Part shown: piece by piece, positions 4,512 through 21,831 of the stretch
How positions within the stretch are numbered: position 1 is the first letter of the stretch
Layout of the letters: every line of letters begins with the position of its first letter
Source: a virus
Virus record (IMG/VR): IMGVR_UViG_3300010396_000006
Location: 41,648 to 105,647 of that record
Reading direction: 5' to 3' (one strand)
Length of the DNA stretch: 64,000 nucleotides
Made by a program: the position numbers and the translations under genes
Notes under the pieces: generated by a model
The model's input: only the letters and a program-made list of their open reading frames with translations
Database searches by the model: none
What the model was told of the DNA's origin: nothing

Positions 4512-4604
4512 ACCTGAAAAGGTCCGACACAGAACTCCTGAAAAGGACTTCGCCAAAGAACTCCCGAAACGGACTTCAACAGCAAGGGAACTCCAGAAAT
4601 GGAG
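4512..4604 (+). repeat. four tandem GAAA-loop mini-hairpins
   Basis: ACCTGAAAAGGT, GAACTCCTGAAAAGGACTTC, GAACTCCCGAAACGGACTTC, GAACTCCAGAAATGGAG. Confidence 0.8.
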
Positions 4605-5426
4605 GATAAGCTATCGTCTGCGGAGCGAAGGAAGCTCAGAAGGCAGTTAAAGGAACAAGGCGAATCAATACCCGCTGACCTAACGCCTAAGCCCAATCGT
4701 AAAGCCCATCTGGATAAACTCCCCAATACGGAAACAAAGACACCGAAGACGGAGAGTAAACCAAGGGGCCAAGCGAAGCCAAAGCCCAAAGCGAAAGCCA
4801 AGCCCAAGCCAAGAAAGACTGAGACAACACCGGCCGGTAATGAATCAGTCGATCAACAGAACGAGACGGAACAACCCAAGCCAGTCACGGTAGAAGCGGT
4901 CCCCGCTCCCGAGTCTGAAATCTCACCCGAATCTGTGTCGGGGGGATGGGGGGACGGTGGCAAATATGGTCCATCTGGTCTGACGAAAACGCACGAACAG
5001 CGGATGGTTGTCAGTTCATTCAATTGGCAAAACCGCAATCGATTCCCGCTGGAAAAGGCTGTTGACGAAAACCTGAAGATCGTTGATGCGGTTGATGGCA
5101 AGTCGGATGTCTATCAGGAAATCCTGACCACGACTGTCGAGATGATGAGATCGAAGTCGGCGAGGTCAAAGGGCATTGGATTGCGGGCCGGCGTTCAACT
5201 CGTGACGGCCGTGCAAAAAGACGACCATGCCAAGTTGAGGGCTGAACTGCGTCCGATGGTATTCACTCCTCCCTCCCCTGCGCCAGAGATGCCGGCTCCC
5301 GCAGTTCCGGCCCATGTCGACCAAAGCATGAACATCGATAACAGCCATCGCGTCGTGATCTTCAACATTCCGGATAACGGACGAGATCCACAATTGAAGG
5401 CGCAATTGACTGGGGCCGCTCAATGA
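4599..5426 (+). CDS. putative terminase small subunit
   Basis: Overlaps the terL start; ends with the 'VVIFNIPDNGRD' motif typical of TerS C-termini; Lys/Pro-rich N-terminus. Confidence 0.6.
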   Translation: MEDKLSSAERRKLRRQLKEQGESIPADLTPKPNRKAHLDKLPNTETKTPKTESKPRGQAKPKPKAKAKPKPRKTETTPAGNESVDQQNETEQPKPVTVEAVPAPESEISPESVSGGWGDGGKYGPSGLTKTHEQRMVVSSFNWQNRNRFPLEKAVDENLKIVDAVDGKSDVYQEILTTTVEMMRSKSARSKGIGLRAGVQLVTAVQKDDHAKLRAELRPMVFTPPSPAPEMPAPAVPAHVDQSMNIDNSHRVVIFNIPDNGRDPQLKAQLTGAAQ

Positions 5427-7150
5427 GTTCCGTTCTCGAACAGTACGGACCAAATGCGACGATCGTAGGACCGCAACCGGGTCCCCAGACTCAGGCCATG
5501 CAGAGCGCTGCCGATATCGTGATCATGGGTGGGGCGAACGGAGGGGGCAAATCGCATTGGATTCTGCTCGAAGCAGCGCGTCATGCCCGAGTGCCAGGAT
5601 ATCGAGCTGTCGTGTTCCGGCGTGAATCGACTGATATCACTGACCCCGGCGGACTCCAAGATACGTCGATGACGATCTATCCCCAGCTTGATGGATGGTT
5701 CCGATCCAACAAACTGGATTGGATATTCGATCCGGATGCTCGCATTTCATTCCGAGGACTGCCGCACGCCAAGGATGCTATCTCGTGGGATGGAAAAGAA
5801 CTGGCGTTCATCGGCTTTGATGAATTGCAATTGTTCACCGAATTTCAATTCTGGTATCTGTTCAGCCGCATGAGGTCCAGTTGCGGCGTCAACCCCGTTA
5901 TTCGAGCGACATGCAATCCCGTTCATGAGGAAGATCCGACCGGCGGATGGTTGAAGATCCTGATTGGCTGGTGGCTCAACTGGGAAACCGGGTTTCCAAT
6001 TCCAGAGCGATCCGGGAAAGTGCGATGGTTCGTGCGGTTGAACAATGAACTTCACTGGGGCGATTCCCGCGAAGAACTGATTGAGCGATTCACCGATCCG
6101 GACAGTAAAGAGGAAGGCCCAACCGTCTTTCCGATGTCGATCACGTTCATCCCGTCGAAGTTACGGGACAACCCGATACTGATGAACTCGTCGCCCCAGT
6201 ATCGAGCCAGCTTGATGGCGTTGCCGGACTATCTGAAGAAACAGAAATACGAAGGCAACTGGAACGCGAAACTTCAGGCCGGAACATTCTTCAAGATTGG
6301 TGTGATGGGCCGCAAAGGTCAGATCATTCCGATAGAGGAACTGCCGGCGATCGGCCTACGTTATTGCCGTGCCTGGGATCTGGCATACACGGAAGGGGCT
6401 GGAGACTGGACCGTTGGTGACTTATTGGCGACTGATGGGAAAGGAACATTTTATCTCATTGATCAAGTTCGTGGACAATGGGAATCAAGCAATCGCAATG
6501 ATCGAATGTTGGCAGTCGCCGCTGACGATGAAGAGAAATACGGTCGAGTCAAGATCTGCGTTCCACAAGATCCATCGGCCGGAACTGAAATTTGTGAGCG
6601 ACTGCTGAAAATGTTTGCCGGTTATTGGGTTGTCGGTCGAAGGCCAATCAAGAACAAGGCAGAGCGAGCGTCGGCTTATTCGTCGTCATTCAATGGCGGA
6701 AATGTGAAGTTCGTCAAAGCGCCATGGAATTCCGGATTGCTTCAACGAATGGATTCATTCCCGACGAAAGATATCCCAGATGATGAGATTGACGCATCTG
6801 CGGACGCCTATGAAGAACTCAGAGGCCCATCGCCTGGGGGAGCAATGGCTGATCAAAGTGCCGTTGCCAACCCGACAGAGAAGGAAAACGTCAATCCGTT
6901 CCGCGGGTTGCTGGAAAGCTATGTTCGCGAATTCTGGTCGACCATGTCGAAGAATGAACCAACCTGTCCCGAGTGGAAGGGATCGTTGGCAAGATTCGTT
7001 GATGATGTCGGTGAGCGCCCAAGCGACGATCACAAACTCGCAAGACGCGATCGCAACGAACTATGGGGTCCAGCAAACTTCTACTGGCAACTGGGCGATG
7101 AACCGCCTCCACCGATCAAAAGAGGCTGGGGCAAGGCAATGGCGGATTGA
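5423..7150 (+). CDS. terL: terminase large subunit (with C-terminal degenerate HNH-like extension)
   Basis: Walker A GGANGGGKS, Walker B FIGFDE, 'RATCNP', nuclease 'RAWDLA' and 'DDEIDASADA'. Confidence 0.95.
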   Translation: MSSVLEQYGPNATIVGPQPGPQTQAMQSAADIVIMGGANGGGKSHWILLEAARHARVPGYRAVVFRRESTDITDPGGLQDTSMTIYPQLDGWFRSNKLDWIFDPDARISFRGLPHAKDAISWDGKELAFIGFDELQLFTEFQFWYLFSRMRSSCGVNPVIRATCNPVHEEDPTGGWLKILIGWWLNWETGFPIPERSGKVRWFVRLNNELHWGDSREELIERFTDPDSKEEGPTVFPMSITFIPSKLRDNPILMNSSPQYRASLMALPDYLKKQKYEGNWNAKLQAGTFFKIGVMGRKGQIIPIEELPAIGLRYCRAWDLAYTEGAGDWTVGDLLATDGKGTFYLIDQVRGQWESSNRNDRMLAVAADDEEKYGRVKICVPQDPSAGTEICERLLKMFAGYWVVGRRPIKNKAERASAYSSSFNGGNVKFVKAPWNSGLLQRMDSFPTKDIPDDEIDASADAYEELRGPSPGGAMADQSAVANPTEKENVNPFRGLLESYVREFWSTMSKNEPTCPEWKGSLARFVDDVGERPSDDHKLARRDRNELWGPANFYWQLGDEPPPPIKRGWGKAMAD

Positions 7151-9818: not shown

Positions 9819-9913
9819 CCGATTGTTGGGCAATCGGACTTGATAGACGCGGCTTGTCTGTGTCGGCCTGTCGTAATACTGCCCAACGGTATTGCGACAG
9901 GCTTTTTCTTTTG
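9819..9913 (+). ncRNA. kissing-loop terminator/attenuator RNA 1
   Basis: 5' hairpin carries GTTGGGCA; terminator GCCTGTCGTAATAC/GTATTGCGACAGGC+TTTTT has loop TGCCCAAC; operator at 9787-9801. Confidence 0.6.
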
Positions 9914-11678: not shown

Positions 11679-12192
11679 CGCCATGATCGATGTCACCGCA
11701 ATCCAATGTCCAGAGTGCGATCATCTCCCATTGAAGATCATCCATCAGTCGGAAGAACAGATCGTCGCCAAATGTCGCAATTGCGGGAATGACTGGATCA
11801 TCACGGTCAAGACGGTCGTTTTATCGGAGTCGGAAATTGAGGCCGGACAAGATGATGCTGTTGAAATCACAGACATGCCGTTCTGAGAGGGAGAGTGAAT
11901 CATCTGCGACGAAATGAGTTCCGAAGAACGCTACGCCATGCATGAGGATATGGCGGATAAAATCACCGATGCATGCGCCGAATTGTTCCCCGAAGATGGA
12001 ATGTGTGCTGATGTTTTATTCGCGTTGCTGACGGCTGCGTCATGGGGAGCGTTATTTCTCATTGATATGCCGCCGGATCAAAAACAAAGGTTCGTTAATA
12101 ACGGCGTCGTGCCGGAACTCGTTGCCACCGCTTCATGTGCGATACGAGAACGATTAGAAAAGATGCGTGTTGCTGACAATAGCCGAAACTAA

Positions 12193-12927
12193 ATGAGGAG
12201 TGAATTAATGGGAACGCAAGTTTGGAATGTGGCATCGCTGCTCGTCATGACGTCTATGTTCATTGGCTTGGCGACAATGCTCTATCGAGCATTCCGTCAT
12301 CAACCGGACGTGAAGACTCCAGAAGATCCATACGGATTCGGTTGCAAGCCAACGCCGATTCAATTGAGAGTCCTGAAATCAACGGCTGACATCGTGATCT
12401 ATTGCGGGCCTGCTGGATCTGGAAAGAGCATGCTGATGCGAATGGCCGCAATGATGCGAGCCAGGTTGTATCCGTCACAGCCTATCCTCACGTTCTGGTT
12501 TCAGCAGCGAGAAACGTGGGAAATGTTGGACAAGCACATTCCGTCAATTCGCGTGATCGGCCTCAAAGGCATCAATGAGGCTTGTGATCAATTTGCGGGA
12601 GTTGCGGCCCACACGATTTGCATCGACGGGATTGACTGGATCAGGGAAGAGTCGTTCTGGTTTCTGCTGTCGCGGTTGCGATCGAACGATTCGAACGTCA
12701 ATCCGCAAATGTTCTGCTCAATGGATCGTCTTACAGATCCAAAGCCGCTATGGCTCGCAAAGCTGGTGAAGCATTGGGAGGAACCAGCAGACGGAATCGG
12801 CATTCGTGGAAAGCGGAATGGAATCCGTCACTTCCAAAGGATTGACGGCAATTTGCATCTTGTGGATATCACAAAGCATGATGCGTTGCTCAGCAAGCCG
12901 ATCTCGATCGAATACATCCAAGGATGA
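12193..12927 (+). CDS. degenerate terminase-ATPase paralog with N-terminal TM helix
   Basis: Colinear similarity to the TerL ATPase half; Walker A GPAGSGKS kept, Walker B DE changed to DG, no nuclease domain. Confidence 0.75.
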   Translation: MRSELMGTQVWNVASLLVMTSMFIGLATMLYRAFRHQPDVKTPEDPYGFGCKPTPIQLRVLKSTADIVIYCGPAGSGKSMLMRMAAMMRARLYPSQPILTFWFQQRETWEMLDKHIPSIRVIGLKGINEACDQFAGVAAHTICIDGIDWIREESFWFLLSRLRSNDSNVNPQMFCSMDRLTDPKPLWLAKLVKHWEEPADGIGIRGKRNGIRHFQRIDGNLHLVDITKHDALLSKPISIEYIQG

Positions 12928-13412
12928 CTAATCAGGGCACGATGCCATCATCAAACCAATAACAGGAGAATCACAAGATGGGATTAGCGAGACGATGGAT
13001 GCGCAAAGTCGAACACAAATTTGCCGATCAATTTCAGGAAGGGGAATTCTTCGACAAACGACAGAAACACGCCAAGCCGCAAGTATTCAACACTCGGATC
13101 TACTTCCAAGATCCAGAATCGGAATGCGTTCAAGTGTCTCGGATCATGGGAACCACGTCTGTTGCTCATCGCCTCAAAGGCCACATGGACCGCAACCCGA
13201 CATGTCGAATCTTGCAGGTGAAGAACACGCCTCATAAACGATGGACAAAGCCAGAACATCCTCTGGTCGCTCGCCGCAAGATGGCAAAGGCCAGAGCTGA
13301 AAGGCTCAAGCGTCAAATCCCGGTCAAGAGATAATCGTTACCGGTCCGTGAATGGGTAATTGTGCCGCCAAGTTTTAAATACTCCTACGAATGTTCAAGA
13401 AAGGCTGATTTG

Positions 13413-13889
13413 ATGCCGGAGAATTTGACGATCGAGCAGAAGGCCACTAACAACGACACATTCCGCCACATTGAACGGGTGAGAAATCTGATCAATACTT
13501 GCGTGACGGATCTACTTCGACGGGGAGAAAGACACGATCAAACGAAACTGGAATCACCAGAGGTTGAACTGTTCACAGAATTCACGCCAAAGTTGGCTGA
13601 GTGTACTTACGGAAGCGCCGAGTACGAGGGATTCCGGAAAGCAATGGGGCCGGCGCTCGCTCACCACTATGCGAACAATTCGCACCATCCAGAGCATTGG
13701 AAGAATGGCATTGACGACATGAGCCTGCTGGACATTGTCGAAATGTTGTGTGACTGGAAAGCAGCGAGTGAACGCCATAACGATGGAAACATCCGGAAGT
13801 CGATCACGATCAATGCCGACCGATTCAAGATGTCGCCGCAGTTGGTGAAGATTCTGGAAAACACAGCCGACTTGCTGTTCTCAGATTGA
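13413..13889 (+). CDS. DUF5662-like HD-type protein
   Basis: 'HIERV...HDQTK...HHYANNSHHPEH...EMLCDWKAA'. Confidence 0.75.
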   Translation: MPENLTIEQKATNNDTFRHIERVRNLINTCVTDLLRRGERHDQTKLESPEVELFTEFTPKLAECTYGSAEYEGFRKAMGPALAHHYANNSHHPEHWKNGIDDMSLLDIVEMLCDWKAASERHNDGNIRKSITINADRFKMSPQLVKILENTADLLFSD

Positions 13890-13947
13890 GACCGCTGGCA
13901 ATGTGCTGACGGCAAACAGACCGTAACTCAAGTTTCAGGAGAAATCA

Positions 13948-14241
13948 GTGAATTCAAGACCATTGGCCGATCAGGTGATCATCAAGCGAGATGACGCCGA
14001 AAAAGTGACTCAGGGAGGAATCCACCTGCCGGATCGAGCGCAGAACGTCCCGCGAAAAGGAACTGTCCTCGCCGCAGGACCTGGGCGACTTCTGGACAAC
14101 GGAACCCGCGGAGAAATGGAACTGAAAGCCGGGGATCGAGTCTATTTCTCAGCTTACGGCGTTCAGGAAGTGGAGATTGACGACGAAAAAGTCATCATCT
14201 GCCGGGAGGCGGATGTGTTAGCGGTGATCGAATCTGAGTGA
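13948..14241 (+). CDS. groES: co-chaperonin GroES
   Basis: 'RPLADQVII...TQGGIHLPD...GTVLAAGPG...LKAGDRVYFSAY...EADVLAVIE'. Confidence 0.93.
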   Translation: MNSRPLADQVIIKRDDAEKVTQGGIHLPDRAQNVPRKGTVLAAGPGRLLDNGTRGEMELKAGDRVYFSAYGVQEVEIDDEKVIICREADVLAVIESE

Positions 14242-14278: not shown

Positions 14279-14320
14279 AGGCTGAGTTGACTATTTTGTT
14301 GACTCAGCCTCTTTCGTTTT
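14279..14320 (+). terminator. intrinsic terminator after groES
   Basis: AGGCTGAGT / ACTCAGCCT stem with T-rich tail. Confidence 0.55.
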
Positions 14321-14329
14321 CAGGCAAGG

Positions 14330-17300
14330 ATGTCACAAATCATGAGCCGACGCCGCAACCGCAACCGTCGCGTTGAGAACTATCGCAAGAATTCGGATCG
14401 GGTTGTTGAGCATCCAAATGTTCCGGCCCCCGAACTGAACGACTCCCAAATCAAGTCGATGGCGTCTCAGATGCGGGCGGCTCTGGCCGGAAGCTTCGGC
14501 GGCGCTCAAGTCACGAATCACCGCGAAGAAGCTCTCCACTATGAGGGCAATAGCTACGTCAATATCGCGGCCATCTGCGCCCAAATGATGATGGTGACGA
14601 TAACAGCCTATGTCGACGGATCGAACCAGCTTCGACAGCAGTCGGTCCGGAAGTCGCTGCGAGGTCTCGTCGGAAGCCGATGGAAGTCTCAATATGGGGT
14701 TGATGAGGCATCGTCGAAGCAACTCGAATCAGACCATTACCTGATGCGATTGCTGTCGAAGCCAAATCCGCACGAACCGGGCAGCATGTTCCGGTATCGG
14801 CAAACTCTTCAACTCAGGCTCACTGGAGGTGCGTTCCTGTGGAACGTCCCAAATATCAACGGCCGGACGTGCGAACGGTACGTCATCCCCACCACATGCC
14901 TGACGCCGGTCTATCCAGACAACACGTTGCCGTACGGTGGTTATCGCGTTCAACCAAACTGTATGCGATGGATTCCACTGGTTGACGATGGATTCGTGAT
15001 CGGGACCCCGGCCCTGATGCGAGTGTTGGGCATGATCATTGATGCCCGAGAAATCCAAAAGGTTGGCTATCCACATCCGATCTGGCTGGATGACTTCCAA
15101 AGCCCGATGTCTGCTGGCGCTCAGTGGGTCGATGCCGAACGATCGATCAACATCGCACGGGCAATGGGCATCAGCCGCGGCATGAATCCGAGCGGTTTCC
15201 TTGAACTATCCAAAGAATACATGGGCATCGAACAAGATGCGCTGAACATCACTCAGCGGAAACTCGATCGACAATATGGCGGCGTCAACAACACGGGCAA
15301 GGTCATTGCCGTGGCTCCCGATACCAAGTTCACCGGATACGATCGAAGCCCGAAAGACATGGAATACCATGAAGGGTACTTGGATCACCGGGAAGCGAAT
15401 CAGTCTCTACACGGCGTTCATCCGATCATCACTGGCGGACAGCCCCCCGGCGCATACGCGGCCTACTACGCCGCCATGCGAGCATTCGACAACAACACGT
15501 TGACTCCCATTTGTGACATGCTGGCGGAATCAGACACGTTCCACATTGCACCGCAATTCGGCGAAGGGATCACGATCGAGATCGAGCCAAAGCCGATCAA
15601 CGATGAGGACGAACTGAATTCACGTCTCCAGGTCGATGGTCAATTGGGGATCATCAAGGTCAATGAAGCGCGAGCATTGCGAGGAATGCCGCCATTGGAC
15701 GGAGCGCAAGGAGAAAAGCTGTGCGGACCGACTTCAAAGGATAAGGTTGGTCAGGATCAAGACAGCGACAATCCATCCAAGCCGAAGAAACCAAAGCAGT
15801 CTGGCGATGCGCCGTCAACTCCCGAGGTCCAAGAAGCCGAACAAGCGGACGTCCCCAAGGCTCCCGAAAATCCCATCGTCGGCAAGAGTGAATCAAAATC
15901 ACTTCAAGCCGCAATGGAAGGGATGAAGGAGGCGGACGAAGACTACATTCAAGAAATAGTTGCCAAGGCGTTGGATTCGCGACTGAAGGCGATGCAACCT
16001 GCCGAGAAGCCAAAGCGGAAGTATTCCTCGACGCAGTTTGATCTGCCTGCCGGTCTCGCCGAAAAAGTGCAGGAGATGGCAGCCCTGATCAATCCGGCCG
16101 ATCTCGCATCGGATGGAATCGAAGAAAATCCGCACGTGACTTGCTTGTACGGGCTGACCGAAGAATCACCCAATGATGTCAAGAAAGCCGTCAAGGGAAT
16201 CTCGGCCGGTCCGATCGTTCTTGAATCGCTGTCGTTGTTCCCGGCTGGTGACAAGCTTGCTCAGCATGGCGGCGAACAGTTCGACGTTTTGAAGATCAGC
16301 ATCGGCGGAAAGTTCATTCACGAGATTCACAATGCGATCGCAGAATCGTGCGAGTATGAAACCGATTATGCCGACTATTCTCCTCACTGTACGATCGCCT
16401 ACTTGAAGCCGGGAAAAGGCCGCAAGTATGTGACGATGAACAATCCAGTGGATGGGATGACGTTCATTCCTGACAAGCTGATCTTCAGTAGCAAAAACCG
16501 AACGGTCTCGGCAATTCGATTGAGCGTTCTGAAATCAGTCGAAGAACAACCATCAGAAGCTCAGATTACTGCCGGCAATTACAAAAAAGATCACATCACA
16601 ATTCAGGGGCTAAGGATCTCAATCGAAAATCCGAAAGGATCTGTTCGAAGTGGTCGTGACGATGATGGCAATGAGTGGTCAACGAAAATGCGGAATGATT
16701 ACGGCTACATCAAAGGAACGAAATCAGATTCCGATGGTGATCACATTGATGTCTTCGTTGGGCCAAATCCAAGTTCAGAATTGGTGTTCGTAATTGATCA
16801 GGTCAATCCGCAAAGCGGGCAACATGACGAACACAAATGCATGTTGGGATTCGATTCGAAAGATCAAGCGAAGTCTGCCTATCTCGAAAACTATTCCAAG
16901 GGTTGGAAAGGCTTCGGCGGCATTACTCCAATGCACATGGATCAATTCAAGGAATGGCTAGACAGCGGAGATTCATCAAAAGGAATCGCGAGAAAATCTC
17001 TCACGGCAGCATTCTCCGAATCAGAAATGAAGGGCCACAATCCAATCAGCGACATCCAAGCCATTGGAAAGAGACTCGCTGAATCCGATTGTGGAATGCC
17101 CGGATACGGTCAGATCTTTATCAAGGAAAACGGATCTGGCCAAGCATGGTATGTCGGTGGCGACGGAGATGAACGAGGATTCGATAAGACTGTCATTCAA
17201 GAACTGAAGAAAGTCACGGGGATTGACGAAGTTCGTTATGAGTCTGAATCGTTCCCGCCCGATGGGGAAGGATGGATTCAGGTCTATCCGAAAGTGTCGA

Positions 17301-20300
17301 AGCGTAAATCTCTCGGCATGTCCGAAGGGATCGGGTCAGATGGAGGATTCGCCGTCGCTTCCGAAGACGAACGATGCCCAAAATGTCCCAAATGCGGATC
17401 ACGGGAAACGCATCATGCTAGAACTGATGGCACAGGGAACGCGATCTGTAGCAATTGCAAATCAATTTTCACTGATCCTGATTATGGAAAACAGAAATCA
17501 GTTTCGTTTCCATCGTCAGAAGTCGTACCGGGCAACAACGGCCATCAATTCCCCAAGAACACATTGATTCTTGGTGGGGATCAAGTTCTGATGCCACCAG
17601 AGTCAGAACTCAAATCCAAATGGATCACGATTCATCCTGGGGGAGACAAAGACGCAACTGGCATTCACATCCTGATTGACGAAGACGGCGAAATCAAAGG
17701 CGGTCCGGCCGAACTGCGAGACAAAGGCATCCGCAAGATGTCTGACTTCGGGAAAGAAGACCTGAAGCCAGTCAAACCAAAAGACAATCACGAGAAGGCC
17801 GCATTCAACGCCAGCAAGCGAGCCGATCAAGCATCCGCCGATGCTAAAGAGTCGGGCGACCTGTTCGACCATATTGCGGCTAAAGAAGCCCACATGCACG
17901 CCGCAGCCCATCACAGCAAAGGCGGCAATGAAGATCAGGCGTCATATCACAGAAAGGCGGCTCAACAGCACGGTTCAGCCGCGACACCAACGGCTCCAGC
18001 GTCAAACGGACAACTGAGCGACGAAAAGATCATCCAGGCAATGAAGCCATCCGTTGATCGCAGCGGCATGGTTGAGGCCGAAGAACTGCGATCGATGCCA
18101 GAATTCGCTGGGATGTCGAAAGAGAAATTCGACCAACGAATGATGGACATGGCCAAAGTTGATCAGCCGGGCGGACCGAAGGTCTCGTTGCACCGATACG
18201 ACCGAGCCGAATCGCTGTCAGCGGACGATAAAAAAAAGATGATCTTCGATCCGGATGCGCCGGCACGATTCGAAGATGGACAAAAGGGAGCGTATTACAA
18301 TGCGGTCTCCATCCGCAAATCGTTGTCAGAAATGAAATCGCATTGGATTACGATCCATCCTCATGGCGATGAGCATGATGGAACGCACGTTTTGATCGAT
18401 GGAGAAGGGAATATCGAAGGCGGTCCCGAAGGACTGGCGAAACGTGGGATTCACAAGCTGTCCGACTTTGGGAAAGGCGGCGAATCAGCAGACAAACCAC
18501 ACGAAACCCGTGAAGAGTGGGCGAAGAGACATTCCGATGCCGCCGATCATTGGTTACATGGAGTGAACAATGATCTGGCAGCCGTGCATCAAGAACACGG
18601 CGACTTGATCACAAAAAAGCACATGACGGACAGCTTTCGAAATCACGTCAATACCGGAAGAATGACCCCAGATCAATATGAGGATCATGTTTCTAAGGGA
18701 ACCATTCTCGGTGGACACGATTACGAACGCGCTCAGCATGTCGAGCAGAAAATCCATGAGATCAAAAATCGTCCGCTAACTGTCCCGGAGCCAGATGGAA
18801 AGCATCCATACGTTGAACCGCCCGCCAAGCCGCCGGAAGAAAAGCCAGAAATCCGACCAGACATCGACGCTCCGATCAGCAAGAAAGACACGCCTCGCGA
18901 AACGGCGGCAAAGCAAAAGAAGATTGACGATGATTATGCGTTTGCTCGCAATTCATCCATCCCGAATGTCGGCGAAGATGTTGCCGATTCGGCTCGTCAC
19001 AAGCGAAATGCTTGGCGTGGATTGGAAGATGCGGAATCCAATGGAACCGCCGAATCAATGGTGACTCGTGATAATCTGCTCAAGGCCGAACCGCACAACT
19101 TGATGTCTCATGCCGGAAAACATCCACTGACATCACTGGCCATGCATTACGCGATGAGATCGTTCCCAGCGAAACCATCCAGCAATCGCGAAGTGGCCAA
19201 TGCCAGCGATCGGAAGGACTATCACGAAGCGTATCAGAGCATCAAAGCAAAAGCCGAGCATCTGGCGGAAACAGAATCCGATCCACGGGCAGCCGCAGAG
19301 AAGCTACGAGAACACGTCGGCAATCATCTGAAGGGATTGAGGGAGCGGAAGATTCCCGGACCCACAATTCCCGTGGCCGATCGATACAACAAGACCGCGA
19401 ACAATTTGGTTGGAATGCACAAGGCGTTACGATTCGCCAGCTACGGCCGACCATCGGCAAATAGCGTTCATGGCAAGATGGAAGAGTTCTCAAAGGCGAT
19501 GGCCGGGAAATATGGACTTCCAGAAAAGTATGAACCTGAAGCGGCCAAGCAATTCGCCTCCCATATTGAGACTCACGCCAAGGACATTATTGACGGGAAA
19601 TCGCTTCCACAGTCATTTGGCATTAAGGGAGAAAAGAAAAACGAATTTAATCCTGCCGATCGATACGTCAAGCATGCTGAACGAGCCGGGGGCAAGGATG
19701 TCAGTCACCAAACCGCAACGGGAGTCTCGGCGGCAAACTCCGTCGTAAACGACTTCGGGATGCGTGGCGTCCAATGGGGTAACAGCGTCACTGACGACGA
19801 ACGCCATCATCACGCTGCCAAGGTTGTCGAAGCGTTGACCGATCTGGCCGATACTCTCGGCATCAAGCCGGCTGATCTCAGTCTCGGCGGAAAGCTGGCC
19901 TTGGCCATTGGCGCTCGCGGTAAGGGAACTGCCTCGGCTCATTACGAACCGCATACCCAGGCCATCAACCTGACGCGGGCCAGCGGAGTCGGTACTCTCG
20001 CCCATGAGTGGGGACACGCCTTTGATCATTCACTGGAGAATTTCGCGAATCGTGCGACGAGTGCGGTCTATCACAGCGAAAACTATCGATCCAGTCCGGC
20101 AATGCAAAAGCTGACATCCGATTTCCGATCATCGGGATTCACGAATCGAATTCATAGTGAGGTTCGTGATATGGTGCGTCAGGGCCTGATGTCGAAAAAG
20201 AAAGCGGAATACTGGCTATCAACCAGAGAACAATTCGCCCGTTGCTTCGAGAGTTATGTTCAACACAAGCTGGCTGACACGAATCAGAAGAATACGTATC

Positions 20301-21037
20301 TTGCTGGTCTGATTTCGGACGGCGGCTTGTGGCCGACCAAGGAAGAAACGGCCAAGATGGCCCCCGCTTTTGACAGTCTGTTCGCTGAATTCCGCAAACA
20401 AAAGTATGGAAGCGAAAATCGGATTGATCAGTCTCGATCGGAAATCAAATCGGCAGTCTTGGATTTGGTTGGTCAATCCGTCTTTAAATCGTCGCGATGG
20501 ATCACAATCCATCCGCACGGTGAAGACGCGAAAGGCGTCCATATCCAGATCAATGACGACGGCGAGATCCTGTCAGGTCCCGCACATCTTCGCGACAAGG
20601 GAATTACCCACATGGGGGATTTCGCGAAGCGGGGAAGCAATCAAGCGGCCGTGGACGAACTGAAGCCTCACGCTCTCGAATTCCTGACCGAGCAACACAA
20701 GCTGAGAGAACATCACAAAGCCGAAGCTCGCAAACTGACTGGCAAGAATGCCGGCAATCTGGCGATGTCGGAAAACAGCTATCACGATCATTCGGATGCT
20801 CATCGATTCGAGACCGCCGCTCGCACATTCGCCCGAGAGAATCCCGATGCTGGATTGAATCCAGATGCTCACGACACGCCGGCCAAAGTCTGGGAGCTAA
20901 TCCGGGAGGGCAAGAAGAAAGCCCCGCTGATCAATTCGAAGGAAGTCCACGAGACAGCCAGAGCCTGGGTGAAGAATCACCGAACGAAGCGTGCGCCGGT
21001 AGGCACATACGAACACGATTCCGATTGGAACTTCTGA
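14330..21037 (+). CDS. portal protein fused to multiple effector domains (polyvalent protein)
   Basis: HK97-type portal N-terminus ('LLSKPNP...LRLTGGAF', 'GKVIAV', 'VNEARALRGMPP'); 2H domain (PHVT...PHCT); 'AGNYKKDH...IENPKGS...DYGYIKGT...DGDHIDVFVG' pyrophosphatase-like domain; Zn ribbon; three WITIHP repeats; 'GVQWGN...LAHEWGHAFD...EQFARCFE' LPD/metallopeptidase-type domain. Confidence 0.88.
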   Translation: MSQIMSRRRNRNRRVENYRKNSDRVVEHPNVPAPELNDSQIKSMASQMRAALAGSFGGAQVTNHREEALHYEGNSYVNIAAICAQMMMVTITAYVDGSNQLRQQSVRKSLRGLVGSRWKSQYGVDEASSKQLESDHYLMRLLSKPNPHEPGSMFRYRQTLQLRLTGGAFLWNVPNINGRTCERYVIPTTCLTPVYPDNTLPYGGYRVQPNCMRWIPLVDDGFVIGTPALMRVLGMIIDAREIQKVGYPHPIWLDDFQSPMSAGAQWVDAERSINIARAMGISRGMNPSGFLELSKEYMGIEQDALNITQRKLDRQYGGVNNTGKVIAVAPDTKFTGYDRSPKDMEYHEGYLDHREANQSLHGVHPIITGGQPPGAYAAYYAAMRAFDNNTLTPICDMLAESDTFHIAPQFGEGITIEIEPKPINDEDELNSRLQVDGQLGIIKVNEARALRGMPPLDGAQGEKLCGPTSKDKVGQDQDSDNPSKPKKPKQSGDAPSTPEVQEAEQADVPKAPENPIVGKSESKSLQAAMEGMKEADEDYIQEIVAKALDSRLKAMQPAEKPKRKYSSTQFDLPAGLAEKVQEMAALINPADLASDGIEENPHVTCLYGLTEESPNDVKKAVKGISAGPIVLESLSLFPAGDKLAQHGGEQFDVLKISIGGKFIHEIHNAIAESCEYETDYADYSPHCTIAYLKPGKGRKYVTMNNPVDGMTFIPDKLIFSSKNRTVSAIRLSVLKSVEEQPSEAQITAGNYKKDHITIQGLRISIENPKGSVRSGRDDDGNEWSTKMRNDYGYIKGTKSDSDGDHIDVFVGPNPSSELVFVIDQVNPQSGQHDEHKCMLGFDSKDQAKSAYLENYSKGWKGFGGITPMHMDQFKEWLDSGDSSKGIARKSLTAAFSESEMKGHNPISDIQAIGKRLAESDCGMPGYGQIFIKENGSGQAWYVGGDGDERGFDKTVIQELKKVTGIDEVRYESESFPPDGEGWIQVYPKVSKRKSLGMSEGIGSDGGFAVASEDERCPKCPKCGSRETHHARTDGTGNAICSNCKSIFTDPDYGKQKSVSFPSSEVVPGNNGHQFPKNTLILGGDQVLMPPESELKSKWITIHPGGDKDATGIHILIDEDGEIKGGPAELRDKGIRKMSDFGKEDLKPVKPKDNHEKAAFNASKRADQASADAKESGDLFDHIAAKEAHMHAAAHHSKGGNEDQASYHRKAAQQHGSAATPTAPASNGQLSDEKIIQAMKPSVDRSGMVEAEELRSMPEFAGMSKEKFDQRMMDMAKVDQPGGPKVSLHRYDRAESLSADDKKKMIFDPDAPARFEDGQKGAYYNAVSIRKSLSEMKSHWITIHPHGDEHDGTHVLIDGEGNIEGGPEGLAKRGIHKLSDFGKGGESADKPHETREEWAKRHSDAADHWLHGVNNDLAAVHQEHGDLITKKHMTDSFRNHVNTGRMTPDQYEDHVSKGTILGGHDYERAQHVEQKIHEIKNRPLTVPEPDGKHPYVEPPAKPPEEKPEIRPDIDAPISKKDTPRETAAKQKKIDDDYAFARNSSIPNVGEDVADSARHKRNAWRGLEDAESNGTAESMVTRDNLLKAEPHNLMSHAGKHPLTSLAMHYAMRSFPAKPSSNREVANASDRKDYHEAYQSIKAKAEHLAETESDPRAAAEKLREHVGNHLKGLRERKIPGPTIPVADRYNKTANNLVGMHKALRFASYGRPSANSVHGKMEEFSKAMAGKYGLPEKYEPEAAKQFASHIETHAKDIIDGKSLPQSFGIKGEKKNEFNPADRYVKHAERAGGKDVSHQTATGVSAANSVVNDFGMRGVQWGNSVTDDERHHHAAKVVEALTDLADTLGIKPADLSLGGKLALAIGARGKGTASAHYEPHTQAINLTRASGVGTLAHEWGHAFDHSLENFANRATSAVYHSENYRSSPAMQKLTSDFRSSGFTNRIHSEVRDMVRQGLMSKKKAEYWLSTREQFARCFESYVQHKLADTNQKNTYLAGLISDGGLWPTKEETAKMAPAFDSLFAEFRKQKYGSENRIDQSRSEIKSAVLDLVGQSVFKSSRWITIHPHGEDAKGVHIQINDDGEILSGPAHLRDKGITHMGDFAKRGSNQAAVDELKPHALEFLTEQHKLREHHKAEARKLTGKNAGNLAMSENSYHDHSDAHRFETAARTFARENPDAGLNPDAHDTPAKVWELIREGKKKAPLINSKEVHETARAWVKNHRTKRAPVGTYEHDSDWNF

Positions 21038-21144: not shown

Positions 21145-21831
21145 ATGGAGATGAATCGACGCTCACTACTCGGAATGATCCTTGGTTCGGCTTGCTCGTT
21201 ATTATTGCCAACTAAGTCGATATCCGCTGGTTTGAAGTCACTGGAAATTCCGGTCGATGCGAACGGCATCCCAATTCACTGTTATGTCTGGAACGTGCCA
21301 AACATCAACGGCCGGACGTGCCAGAGACATATTATTCCTGTCGACGATCTTGCATTGATTAAAGCGAATACGGAGTTGCCTTATAGTGGGTATCGTATCA
21401 GCCAATCCCCCAATCGATGGGCATCCATGCCGCTTTATGGGGAAAGCCCGGTTGAAAATCCATCATTGCGAGTCGCTGGATATATCATTGATGACAGGCA
21501 AGTAGAACGAATCTCTCCATCGAATCCATTTCGGCTGAAGTTGCTTTACCATCATGACGTCGAGGTATGCTTTATTGACGGGTCTGCCGATGACTCGATC
21601 GCCTTCTATCTCGCATGGCAAAGATGCCGCCAAACTCCATCGCAAGAATCGGAGTTGCGAAAACATTTAGCGAATGGCGACGGCATTGCGATTGGCTTTC
21701 GCAAATCAAATTTGATGTCTTTTGTGGCAATCAACCAAGCGGTTATGGACTGCGGTGTCCCATGCTTTGAGACAGACAAAATGACAGAAAGCGAAAATCG
21801 ATGCACGCGGACGTATGCTCACGTCAGCTAG
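21145..21831 (+). CDS. protein with twin-arginine-like leader and an ~80-aa portal-derived segment
   Basis: 'MNRRSLLGMILG'; 'WNVPNINGRTCQRHIIP...LPYSGYRI...RVAGYIIDDRQVERI' matches the portal segment at ~14840-15063. Confidence 0.7.
   Translation: MEMNRRSLLGMILGSACSLLLPTKSISAGLKSLEIPVDANGIPIHCYVWNVPNINGRTCQRHIIPVDDLALIKANTELPYSGYRISQSPNRWASMPLYGESPVENPSLRVAGYIIDDRQVERISPSNPFRLKLLYHHDVEVCFIDGSADDSIAFYLAWQRCRQTPSQESELRKHLANGDGIAIGFRKSNLMSFVAINQAVMDCGVPCFETDKMTESENRCTRTYAHVS

Follow-up and report, generated by a model that had tools for sequence, protein, structure and literature searches.

The phage genome studied here encodes two proteins related to the large terminase subunit (TerL). One is the complete terminase, and the other is a short protein that we regard as a true, diverged paralog of this TerL, reduced to the ASCE ATPase core. 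It carries an N-terminal hydrophobic helix, predicted to anchor it in the inner membrane, and it has kept the residues that hold nucleotide while those needed for hydrolysis have been lost. As its motifs are read here, the short protein is not a terminase: it is without the catalytic glutamate, motif III, the lid and the nuclease domain. A role as an accessory factor in the phage's own packaging or head-assembly module is tentatively preferred.

The short gene and its surroundings

The window, i.e. the whole stretch of 64,000 nucleotides that was analysed, comprises bases 41648-105647 of an IMG/VR virus record. This record is complete (105,647 bp) and has direct terminal repeats. The source virus is an uncultured phage of ~106 kb, in which the + strand carries nearly all genes. 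The following features locate the short gene:

5423..7150, + strand: full-length large terminase TerL, 575 aa; Terminase_6N at residues 35-292, Terminase_6C at residues 317-464, phrog_979 E 1.5e-121
9865..9903, + strand: terminator-like hairpin (17-bp stem, then a T run) upstream of the block with the short gene
12208..12927, + strand: short TerL-ATPase-like gene, 239 aa from ATG 12208 (244 aa from ATG 12193); phrog_979 E 1.3e-15
14279..14310, + strand: terminator-like hairpin 3' of the GroES gene, the downstream border of the co-directional block

An earlier note on this DNA had described the frame at 12193-12927 as intact, and it was found open throughout (244 aa). Translation likely starts at ATG 12208, since an AGGAG sequence (12196-12200) is located 7 nt 5' of this codon and the resulting 239 aa equal the length in the database gene call. 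The alternative ATG 12193 directly abuts the stop of an upstream 92-aa ORF at 12192. In GC content and codon use the short gene resembled the other genes of the phage. A recent foreign acquisition was considered and rejected because the codon use is native-like.

Between terL and the short gene, which is found 5 kb further downstream, there are at least seven ORFs, so that the two genes are not adjacent, although they share the strand and the gene run. Downstream of the short gene follows that of the portal polyprotein (14330-21037), the portal N-terminal domain of which is encoded at 14330 to ~15800. A candidate TerS is encoded at 4599-5426. The block between the two hairpins encodes, in order, a 582-aa protein, a Zn-ribbon protein, a 92-aa protein, the short TerL-like protein, a basic 118-aa protein, a DUF5662 protein and GroES. 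A PADLOC check of the block neighbours revealed no known links to defence, and the short protein matched no PADLOC or anti-defence family.

Three observations concern the nearby genes themselves. The DUF5662 protein (E 7.5e-38) and the GroES/Cpn10 homolog (E 5.3e-28) are encoded at window positions 13362-14241 (+), just 5' of the portal gene. The portal fusion protein (14330-21037, +; 2235 aa) contains three copies of a ~45-residue module starting with W-I-T-I-H-P. A further ORF at 21145-21831 (+) is a second partial copy of a packaging protein: 88 of its residues are 42% identical to portal residues 168-253 (E 8e-19), and this portal-like segment is preceded by a leader with a Tat-like N-R-R-S-L-L sequence, a hydrophobic core and an I-S-A cleavage-like site. 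No homologs of this ORF were found in a word-indexed search.

Relationship to the terminase of the same phage

The colinear similarity to TerL on which the earlier note was built was recovered by BLASTP (28% identity over 205 aa, E 5e-14), TerL residues 16-243 being covered, and every motif quoted there was present at its place in ORF 12193-12927 and ORF 5423-7150. In the short ORF the Walker A segment is found at nt 12385, the FW..SR.RS segment at 12655 and the terminal strand at 12898; the corresponding positions in TerL are 5510, 5849 and 6131, respectively. The two proteins share the family phrog_979, 'terminase large subunit', with the E values listed above. Pfam gave no terminase hit for the short protein, which stayed below the Terminase_6N threshold, and the generic P-loop signals were sub-threshold as well. 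In the complete 105.6-kb genome there are exactly two TerL-like places. A split terL gene was excluded as an explanation because a complete TerL is encoded in the same genome.

Maximum-likelihood phylogeny placed the TerL of this phage within the ordinary TerLs, the nearest of which is 53% identical to it. The short protein and its closest relative, P0002, form a clade with a support of 99 and a stem of 3.69 changes per column. Based on the position of the own TerL among ordinary TerLs and on this very long stem, the short proteins are considered an old or fast-diverged paralog family and not the product of a recent duplication. The own TerL also has a C-terminal extension (residues 515-555, window 6965-7087) with weak similarity to HNH endonucleases (phrog_3377, E 1.4e-4).

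ATPase motifs

For the comparison of motifs the short proteins were aligned with 37 full-length TerLs of the same family. Four segments of the short gene were of interest:

12361..12429, + strand: Q motif (Gln57) and Walker A (Gly72 to Ser79), nucleotide-binding elements that are kept
12613..12630, + strand: Walker B strand T-I-C-I-D-G; Asp145 kept, Gly146 in place of the catalytic Glu, Asp148 at +3
12670..12684, + strand: S-R-L-R-S motif; Arg161 at Walker B +1 plus 15 residues
12715..12729, + strand: degenerate motif III, C-S-M-D-R compared to A-T-C/T-N-P in TerL, i.e. Asp-Arg for Asn-Pro

The residues of the nucleotide pocket were retained. Gly72, Gly77 and Lys78 occur without exception in the short proteins and the TerLs, Ser79 is also present in the short protein, Gln57 of the Q motif is matched in 36 of the 37 TerLs, and the Walker B aspartate, Asp145 in the short protein, is found in all 37. 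Arg161 is shared by all short proteins and by 36 of the TerLs; Ser160, Arg163 and Ser164 were also kept, and the S-R-x-R-S segment is the most TerL-like part of the short protein (52% identity). In the D6E TerL, R158 is a biochemically proven trans-arginine finger and E143 is the catalytic glutamate (PMC5727402). The equal 15-residue spacing and the position after helix alpha3 suggest that Arg161 corresponds to R158 of D6E.

The elements of hydrolysis were lost. Every one of the 37 TerLs has a catalytic glutamate in one of two forms, either Glu at +1 from the Walker B aspartate (30 TerLs) or Gln at +1 with Glu at +3 (seven TerLs). The short protein has neither; the loss of the Walker B glutamate that had been noticed earlier, I-D-G in the short ORF compared to F-D-E in TerL, was thus borne out by the larger alignment. 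Motif III (T-x-N-P), by which hydrolysis is coupled to translocation, has Asn in 37 of 37 TerLs and Pro in 36, compared to S-M-D-R in the short protein and Asp-Met in P0002. The F-R-R strand, the first Arg of which occurs in all 37 TerLs, is absent from the short protein together with ~30 residues beyond it. The nuclease domain was also missing, as had been claimed: the short protein stops at the strand aligned with TerL residues 237-243, and the lid is gone too, whereas TerL continues to residue 575 and is the only one of the two with Terminase_6C.

It appears from these motifs that ATP is bound by the domain with little or no hydrolysis, and that DNA can be neither translocated nor cut by it. 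The domain would therefore have to act by binding. The description of the protein as 'catalytically dead' in the earlier note holds as far as the loss of the hydrolysis motifs is concerned, and is well founded, but the word 'dead' is derived from motifs and not from a measured activity. With respect to the full-length TerLs, the D-Q-x-E form of Walker B in seven of the 37 looks like a catalytic glutamate shifted by two residues, which matters when D-E alone is used to call a protein dead.

Predicted membrane anchor and fold

The N-terminal part of the short protein contains the following feature:

12220..12285, + strand: N-terminal hydrophobic helix, predicted single-pass anchor, residues ~10-31 in 244-aa numbering

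The N-terminal transmembrane helix proposed from the letters was supported by a Kyte-Doolittle 19-residue mean of 1.87 at residues 13-31 and by AlphaFold2, which placed a helix at residues 6-35 (block pLDDT 84-89). Neither the own TerL nor the 37 aligned TerLs have a counterpart of this helix. Some TerLs contain internal hydrophobic stretches of comparable score at the Walker A strand, and the case for an anchor therefore does not depend on the score alone but on where the segment is located, on its predicted helix and on its conservation.

Positively charged flanks of membrane helices are generally on the cytoplasmic side (the positive-inside rule). In the short protein the net charge before the helix is zero, and Arg32, Arg35 and Lys41 follow it. 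These flanking charges suggest that the helix spans the membrane once, the N-terminus being outside and the C-terminus inside, which would place the ATPase-like domain on the cytoplasmic face of the inner membrane. Such a location fits the conserved nucleotide pocket.

The AlphaFold2 model, made from 42 aligned sequences, had a mean pLDDT of 81.5 and a pTM of 0.74. The long helix at residues 6-35 is connected by a linker of low order to an alpha/beta ASCE core, which is complete and extends from residue 50 to the last residue. The predicted fold identifies the protein as an ASCE ATPase, and it is the sequence that identifies it as TerL-like. With this model the best matches in a BFVD structure search were terminases (E 8.5e-13), and in the ESM Atlas TM values of 0.66-0.70 to TerL clusters were obtained. 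In the PDB, Foldseek ranked mainly KaiC structures at the top, with low TM scores; the long helix was the probable cause, and the comparison was made with an exhaustive aligner. A profile search of PDB sequences gave matches to nuclease domains only. When a complex of TerL residues 1-300 and short-protein residues 45-244 was predicted, the score was 0.01, a value that is not taken as evidence on binding in either direction.

Relatives and maintenance of the gene

An exhaustive HMMER search of 1.84 billion cluster representatives returned one close relative of the short protein, P0002 (270 aa, E 1.7e-39), which is 40-45% identical to it, with 40% over 255 aa in BLASTP (E 1e-43). P0002 likewise has an N-terminal hydrophobic helix (KD 2.55 at residues 4-22) followed by a positively charged flank. 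In its core Walker A is intact, Walker B is Asp-Gly with Asn at +3 and motif III has Asp for Asn, and its C-terminus is the same strand with which the window protein ends. The family consists of these two clear members. The other HMMER matches, besides the metagenomic proteins P0005 and P0006, were full-length TerLs, the best of them with E ~1e-8.

P0005 (215 aa) shares the deletion of the window protein but is without an anchor, and its Walker B reads D-Q-L-E. It was first read as dead, but this reading was dropped, and the protein may be active, since D-Q-x-E occurs in seven of the 37 real TerLs. A tree with P0005 forced into the clade of the short protein and P0002 was not rejected (p-AU 0.80) and scored above the quick free tree, although the long branches make this placement unsafe. 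The placement of P0006 is unsafe as well. P0006 (314 aa) has Asp-Asn in Walker B and His-Asp for the Asn-Pro of motif III, retains the F-R-R strand, and has a non-hydrophobic N-terminal extension of ~60 residues. P0002 and P0005 originate from contigs of 1.6-1.7 kb and P0006 from a contig of 5.5 kb. The 50,697 phage records searched with tblastn contained no match to the short protein, a word-indexed search of proteins returned nothing but the short protein itself, and a profile of four sequences found no additional relatives. Scans of viral, metagenome and genome collections with the protein, the alignment, P0002, P0005 and P0006 returned full-length TerLs or nothing. Five phages with TerLs 29-37% identical to the own TerL were inspected and contained no second TerL-like gene.

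As P0002 shares the anchor, the Asp-Gly Walker B and the C-terminal end, the short ORF is judged to be a maintained gene and not debris. In a substitution-only simulation of drift to 45% protein identity, the frame remained stop-free in 2 of 2000 cases, with a mean of 7 stops. Another assembly of the same virus has a broken version, P0056 (157 aa), in which one G is lost from the GGG run at 12597-12599 and the frame shifts by +1. This is either a sequencing or assembly error or a natural null allele, in which case the gene would be dispensable. The frameshifted version, the other partial duplications in the genome and the very small number of homologs would all fit a functionless remnant of a partial terL duplication that is still open by chance. 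We consider such a remnant very unlikely, since a homolog at 40-45% identity is still open and has retained the anchor and the residues that bind nucleotide, since a neutrally drifting frame so rarely stayed stop-free up to this distance in the simulations, and since the ribosome-binding site of the gene is good and its codon use native.

Conservation between the window protein and P0002 was uneven. At the upper end were the last strand with 67%, Walker A with 57%, the C-terminal hairpin with 56% and the S-R-x-R-S helix with 53%, and at the lower end motif III with 38% and the beta2-beta3 region with 26%; the Walker B strand had also diverged. The C-terminal hairpin and last strand are 56-67% identical between the family members, compared to 36-47% among TerLs, which suggests a new functional surface. 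The TerL fold might have been reused for an unrelated membrane task, for example as a nucleotide-gated switch that acts on the timing of lysis, on DNA entry or on the remodelling of the envelope, with the link to the terminase gone. Besides the new surface, the very long stem branch, the newly acquired anchor and neighbour genes of no known function are in line with such a reuse. However, the gene is still located in the packaging module, and its most TerL-like segment is the inter-subunit helix with the arginine motif. All considered, we find the reuse of the fold somewhat unlikely.

Comparison with known truncated TerL proteins

Stand-alone truncated paralogs of the TerL ATPase are a known class, and the short protein, an ATPase-core-only TerL homolog encoded alongside a full terL, belongs to this class. 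What is new is the conserved membrane anchor together with the lost hydrolysis residues. None of the other short TerL-like proteins examined (P0005, P0006 and the CHA_P1 protein) has an N-terminal anchor. In the comparison with phrog_15848, the described truncated-TerL family covered by sequence, the window protein did not belong to it: there was no match at E values up to 1, and with P0002 the window protein forms a clade of its own.

One such case is vs.8 of phage T4, a stand-alone homolog of the T4 TerL ATPase domain with conserved Walker motifs (Evans et al. 2026, Nat Commun, PMC13601566). Like the window protein, vs.8 is a short, nuclease-free homolog of the ATPase domain of the own TerL and coexists with a full terL. 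Compared by description, the window protein differs from it by the missing catalytic glutamate and motif III and by the N-terminal anchor. Co-expressed vs.8 activates EcAvs2, and the isolated ATPase domains of five terminases strongly activate both EcAvs2 and Upx (PMC13601566). The ATPase domain by itself is bound by EcAvs2, which senses the ATP held there as well as the active site (PMC13601566). The role of TerL-like activators that are not terminases was left by Evans et al. as an open question, with the suggestion that they may be anti-defence proteins (PMC13601566).

An incomplete TerL gene, CBB_274, was described by Buttimer et al. (2017, PMC5259590), who noted similar genes in other Rak2-like phages and in phiM12 and phiN3. 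As in the window, these phages have a second gene with an incomplete TerL domain in addition to a full terL, which was noted as unusual. The CBB_274 group is of the T4 gp17 branch and directly adjoins terL, whereas the window gene is of the phrog_979 branch, 5 kb downstream of terL, and encodes an anchored protein.

A further group was found via the BFVD match. Nankokuvirus phages of Pseudomonas (KPP10, CHA_P1) encode a 272-aa ATPase-only TerL paralog, phrog_15848. In CHA_P1 (KC862295) TerL is at 1-1419 and the short protein, CHA_P10165, annotated as 'hypothetical protein', is at 86858-87676, two genes upstream of terL. Around 41 records had two matching places each; in the sister group around PAK_P1 only TerL was matched and no second place was found. 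The phrog_15848 proteins are, like the window protein, ATPase-only paralogs of a phrog_979-type TerL beside a full TerL, and they have a degenerate motif III. Unlike the window protein, they have kept the Walker B Asp-Glu and the arginine pair and have no hydrophobic N-terminus. The CHA_P1 protein and the window protein share only 25% identity (E 6e-5), and the two were probably derived independently.

With the TerL ATPase domains of known structure (D6E 5OE8, P74-26 4ZNI, Sf6 4IDH and T4 gp17 2O0H) the window protein has the ASCE fold and the motif order in common, the catalytic glutamate, motif III, lid and nuclease being absent from the window protein. Membrane-anchored DNA translocases of the FtsK/HerA type and coupling proteins resemble it in having an anchor, but the window protein is without the catalytic glutamate, and its sequence affinity is to TerL and not to FtsK/HerA.

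Possible function

The earlier note had gone beyond the structural description and proposed that the protein is a decoy for Avs immune sensors. The structural part of this reading was sustained, i.e. a membrane-anchored TerL ATPase core that has lost the nuclease domain and the hydrolysis residues, with P0002 alike. The decoy function was not: it received no support from any computation, and the nearest experimental precedents (vs.8, TerL ATPase domains and Ksap2) activate the sensors. A decoy would bind sensors of the Avs1-3/Upx type through its ATP-loaded domain, hold them at the membrane and block the assembly of oligomers on the real TerL. Several observations would fit such a decoy. Avs1-3 sense the TerL fold by direct binding (PMC13581612), EcAvs2 reads a bound ATP and active site that a non-hydrolysing copy would show permanently, and an anti-defence role of TerL-like activators has been suggested by Evans et al. 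(PMC13601566). In addition, the short gene is probably co-expressed with terL, and the portal, another target of Avs, also has a partial second copy in this phage (42% identity over 88 aa). Both Avs targets, TerL and portal, being duplicated in one genome is suggestive. However, an exported portal fragment would miss cytoplasmic sensors, and with its Tat-like export signal the fragment would leave the cytoplasm, where Avs acts.

Ksap2, which is weakly similar to TerL ATPases, activates KpAvs2 (Bechon et al. 2024, PMC11564622), and so far every look-alike or isolated ATPase domain tested (vs.8, the five ATPase domains, Ksap1 and Ksap2) is an activator. Since isolated ATPase domains, vs.8 and Ksap2 activate sensors, a TerL look-alike would by analogy more likely be a trigger than a blocker, unless the tether stops sensor oligomerisation. 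Tethered proteins are concentrated in the two dimensions of the membrane, and tetramerisation need not be prevented by this. The anti-Avs proteins known so far (the ORF55 ligase and ORF83) are not mimics, and the missing match to PADLOC and anti-defence families also speaks against a decoy, which we regard as unlikely. The more specific version, in which a membrane-tethered and permanently ATP-loaded TerL mimic captures Avs1-3/Upx-type sensors at the inner membrane, perhaps alongside the exported portal-fragment copy (21145-21831), appears decidedly unlikely. If this were true, it would be the first example in bacteria of a pattern-recognition target being imitated by a viral decoy.

The protein could also be directed against competing phages, which was the second idea of the earlier note (a dominant-negative inhibitor of their packaging). 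A membrane-tethered poison or titrating mimic might enter or cap the terminase rings of co-infecting relatives, or bind their TerS or DNA, while the own TerL would have diverged to escape. Ring-interface elements, here the nucleotide pocket and an arginine at the finger position, retained without catalysis are what is expected of a classic dominant-negative ring subunit, and the rarity and fast evolution of the family suit a conflict gene. Many exclusion proteins are membrane-anchored, as the short protein is predicted to be. On the other hand, the short protein is 28% identical to the own TerL and does not resemble any other of the TerLs found more closely, which leaves it without an apparent target, and its gene is located among late packaging genes and not among early or lysogeny genes. 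We know of no experiment on, or precedent for, a copy of the TerL ATPase used against competitors. An anti-competitor role is improbable in our view.

The possible explanation that we tentatively prefer is that the short protein is an accessory factor of the phage's own packaging or head-assembly module and acts by binding. Ring ATPases are known to contain subunits that bind nucleotide without being catalytic, for example the alpha subunit of F1-ATPase, which supplies an arginine finger and does not hydrolyse ATP. A binding role towards TerL or its partners is preferred because the predicted capacity to hold ATP and the arginine, which in TerL rings extends into the active site of the adjacent subunit, have been kept without catalysis, as is typical of a non-catalytic subunit at a ring interface, and because the gene is located in the packaging module. 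The retained nucleotide pocket and the arginine-finger face, which are the surfaces of the subunit-subunit contact in the TerL ring, would engage TerL or a TerL partner at the membrane. The terminase would in this way be localised or restrained, and packaging would not be powered by the short protein.

In favour of the accessory factor are the paralogy with TerL, the pattern of motifs retained and lost in comparison with the 37 TerLs, the maintenance of the gene and its constraint profile, its position between the hairpins, and the biochemistry of the D6E enzyme. There are also observations that do not fit well. Gene position is weak evidence of function, the inspected close TerL relatives lack such a gene, and a family as rare as this one, with two clear members, is more readily explained by an accessory or conflict gene than by a core packaging factor. 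The TerL of several phages reaches the portal via its C-terminal domain, and it is this domain that the short protein does not have. The long stem (3.69 changes per column) points to a major change of constraint, by which the original interfaces may have been lost, and the frame-breaking deletion of 1 nt in the other assembly reflects either an error or dispensability.

Since 2017 the terminase ATPase core has been reported as a stand-alone copy in several groups of phages, and the result with vs.8 and Avs2 (2026) has made their role a live question. The family described here adds two constraints that are common to both of its members: the hydrolysis residues are gone while the nucleotide and arginine residues are kept, and the domain is, by prediction, fixed in the membrane. 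Given the lost hydrolysis residues and the membrane fixing, the short protein is expected to act by binding at the membrane. Should the partner be TerL, the viral packaging motor would have a natural regulator or poison in this protein; should the partner be an immune sensor, the protein would represent a new type of counter-defence.
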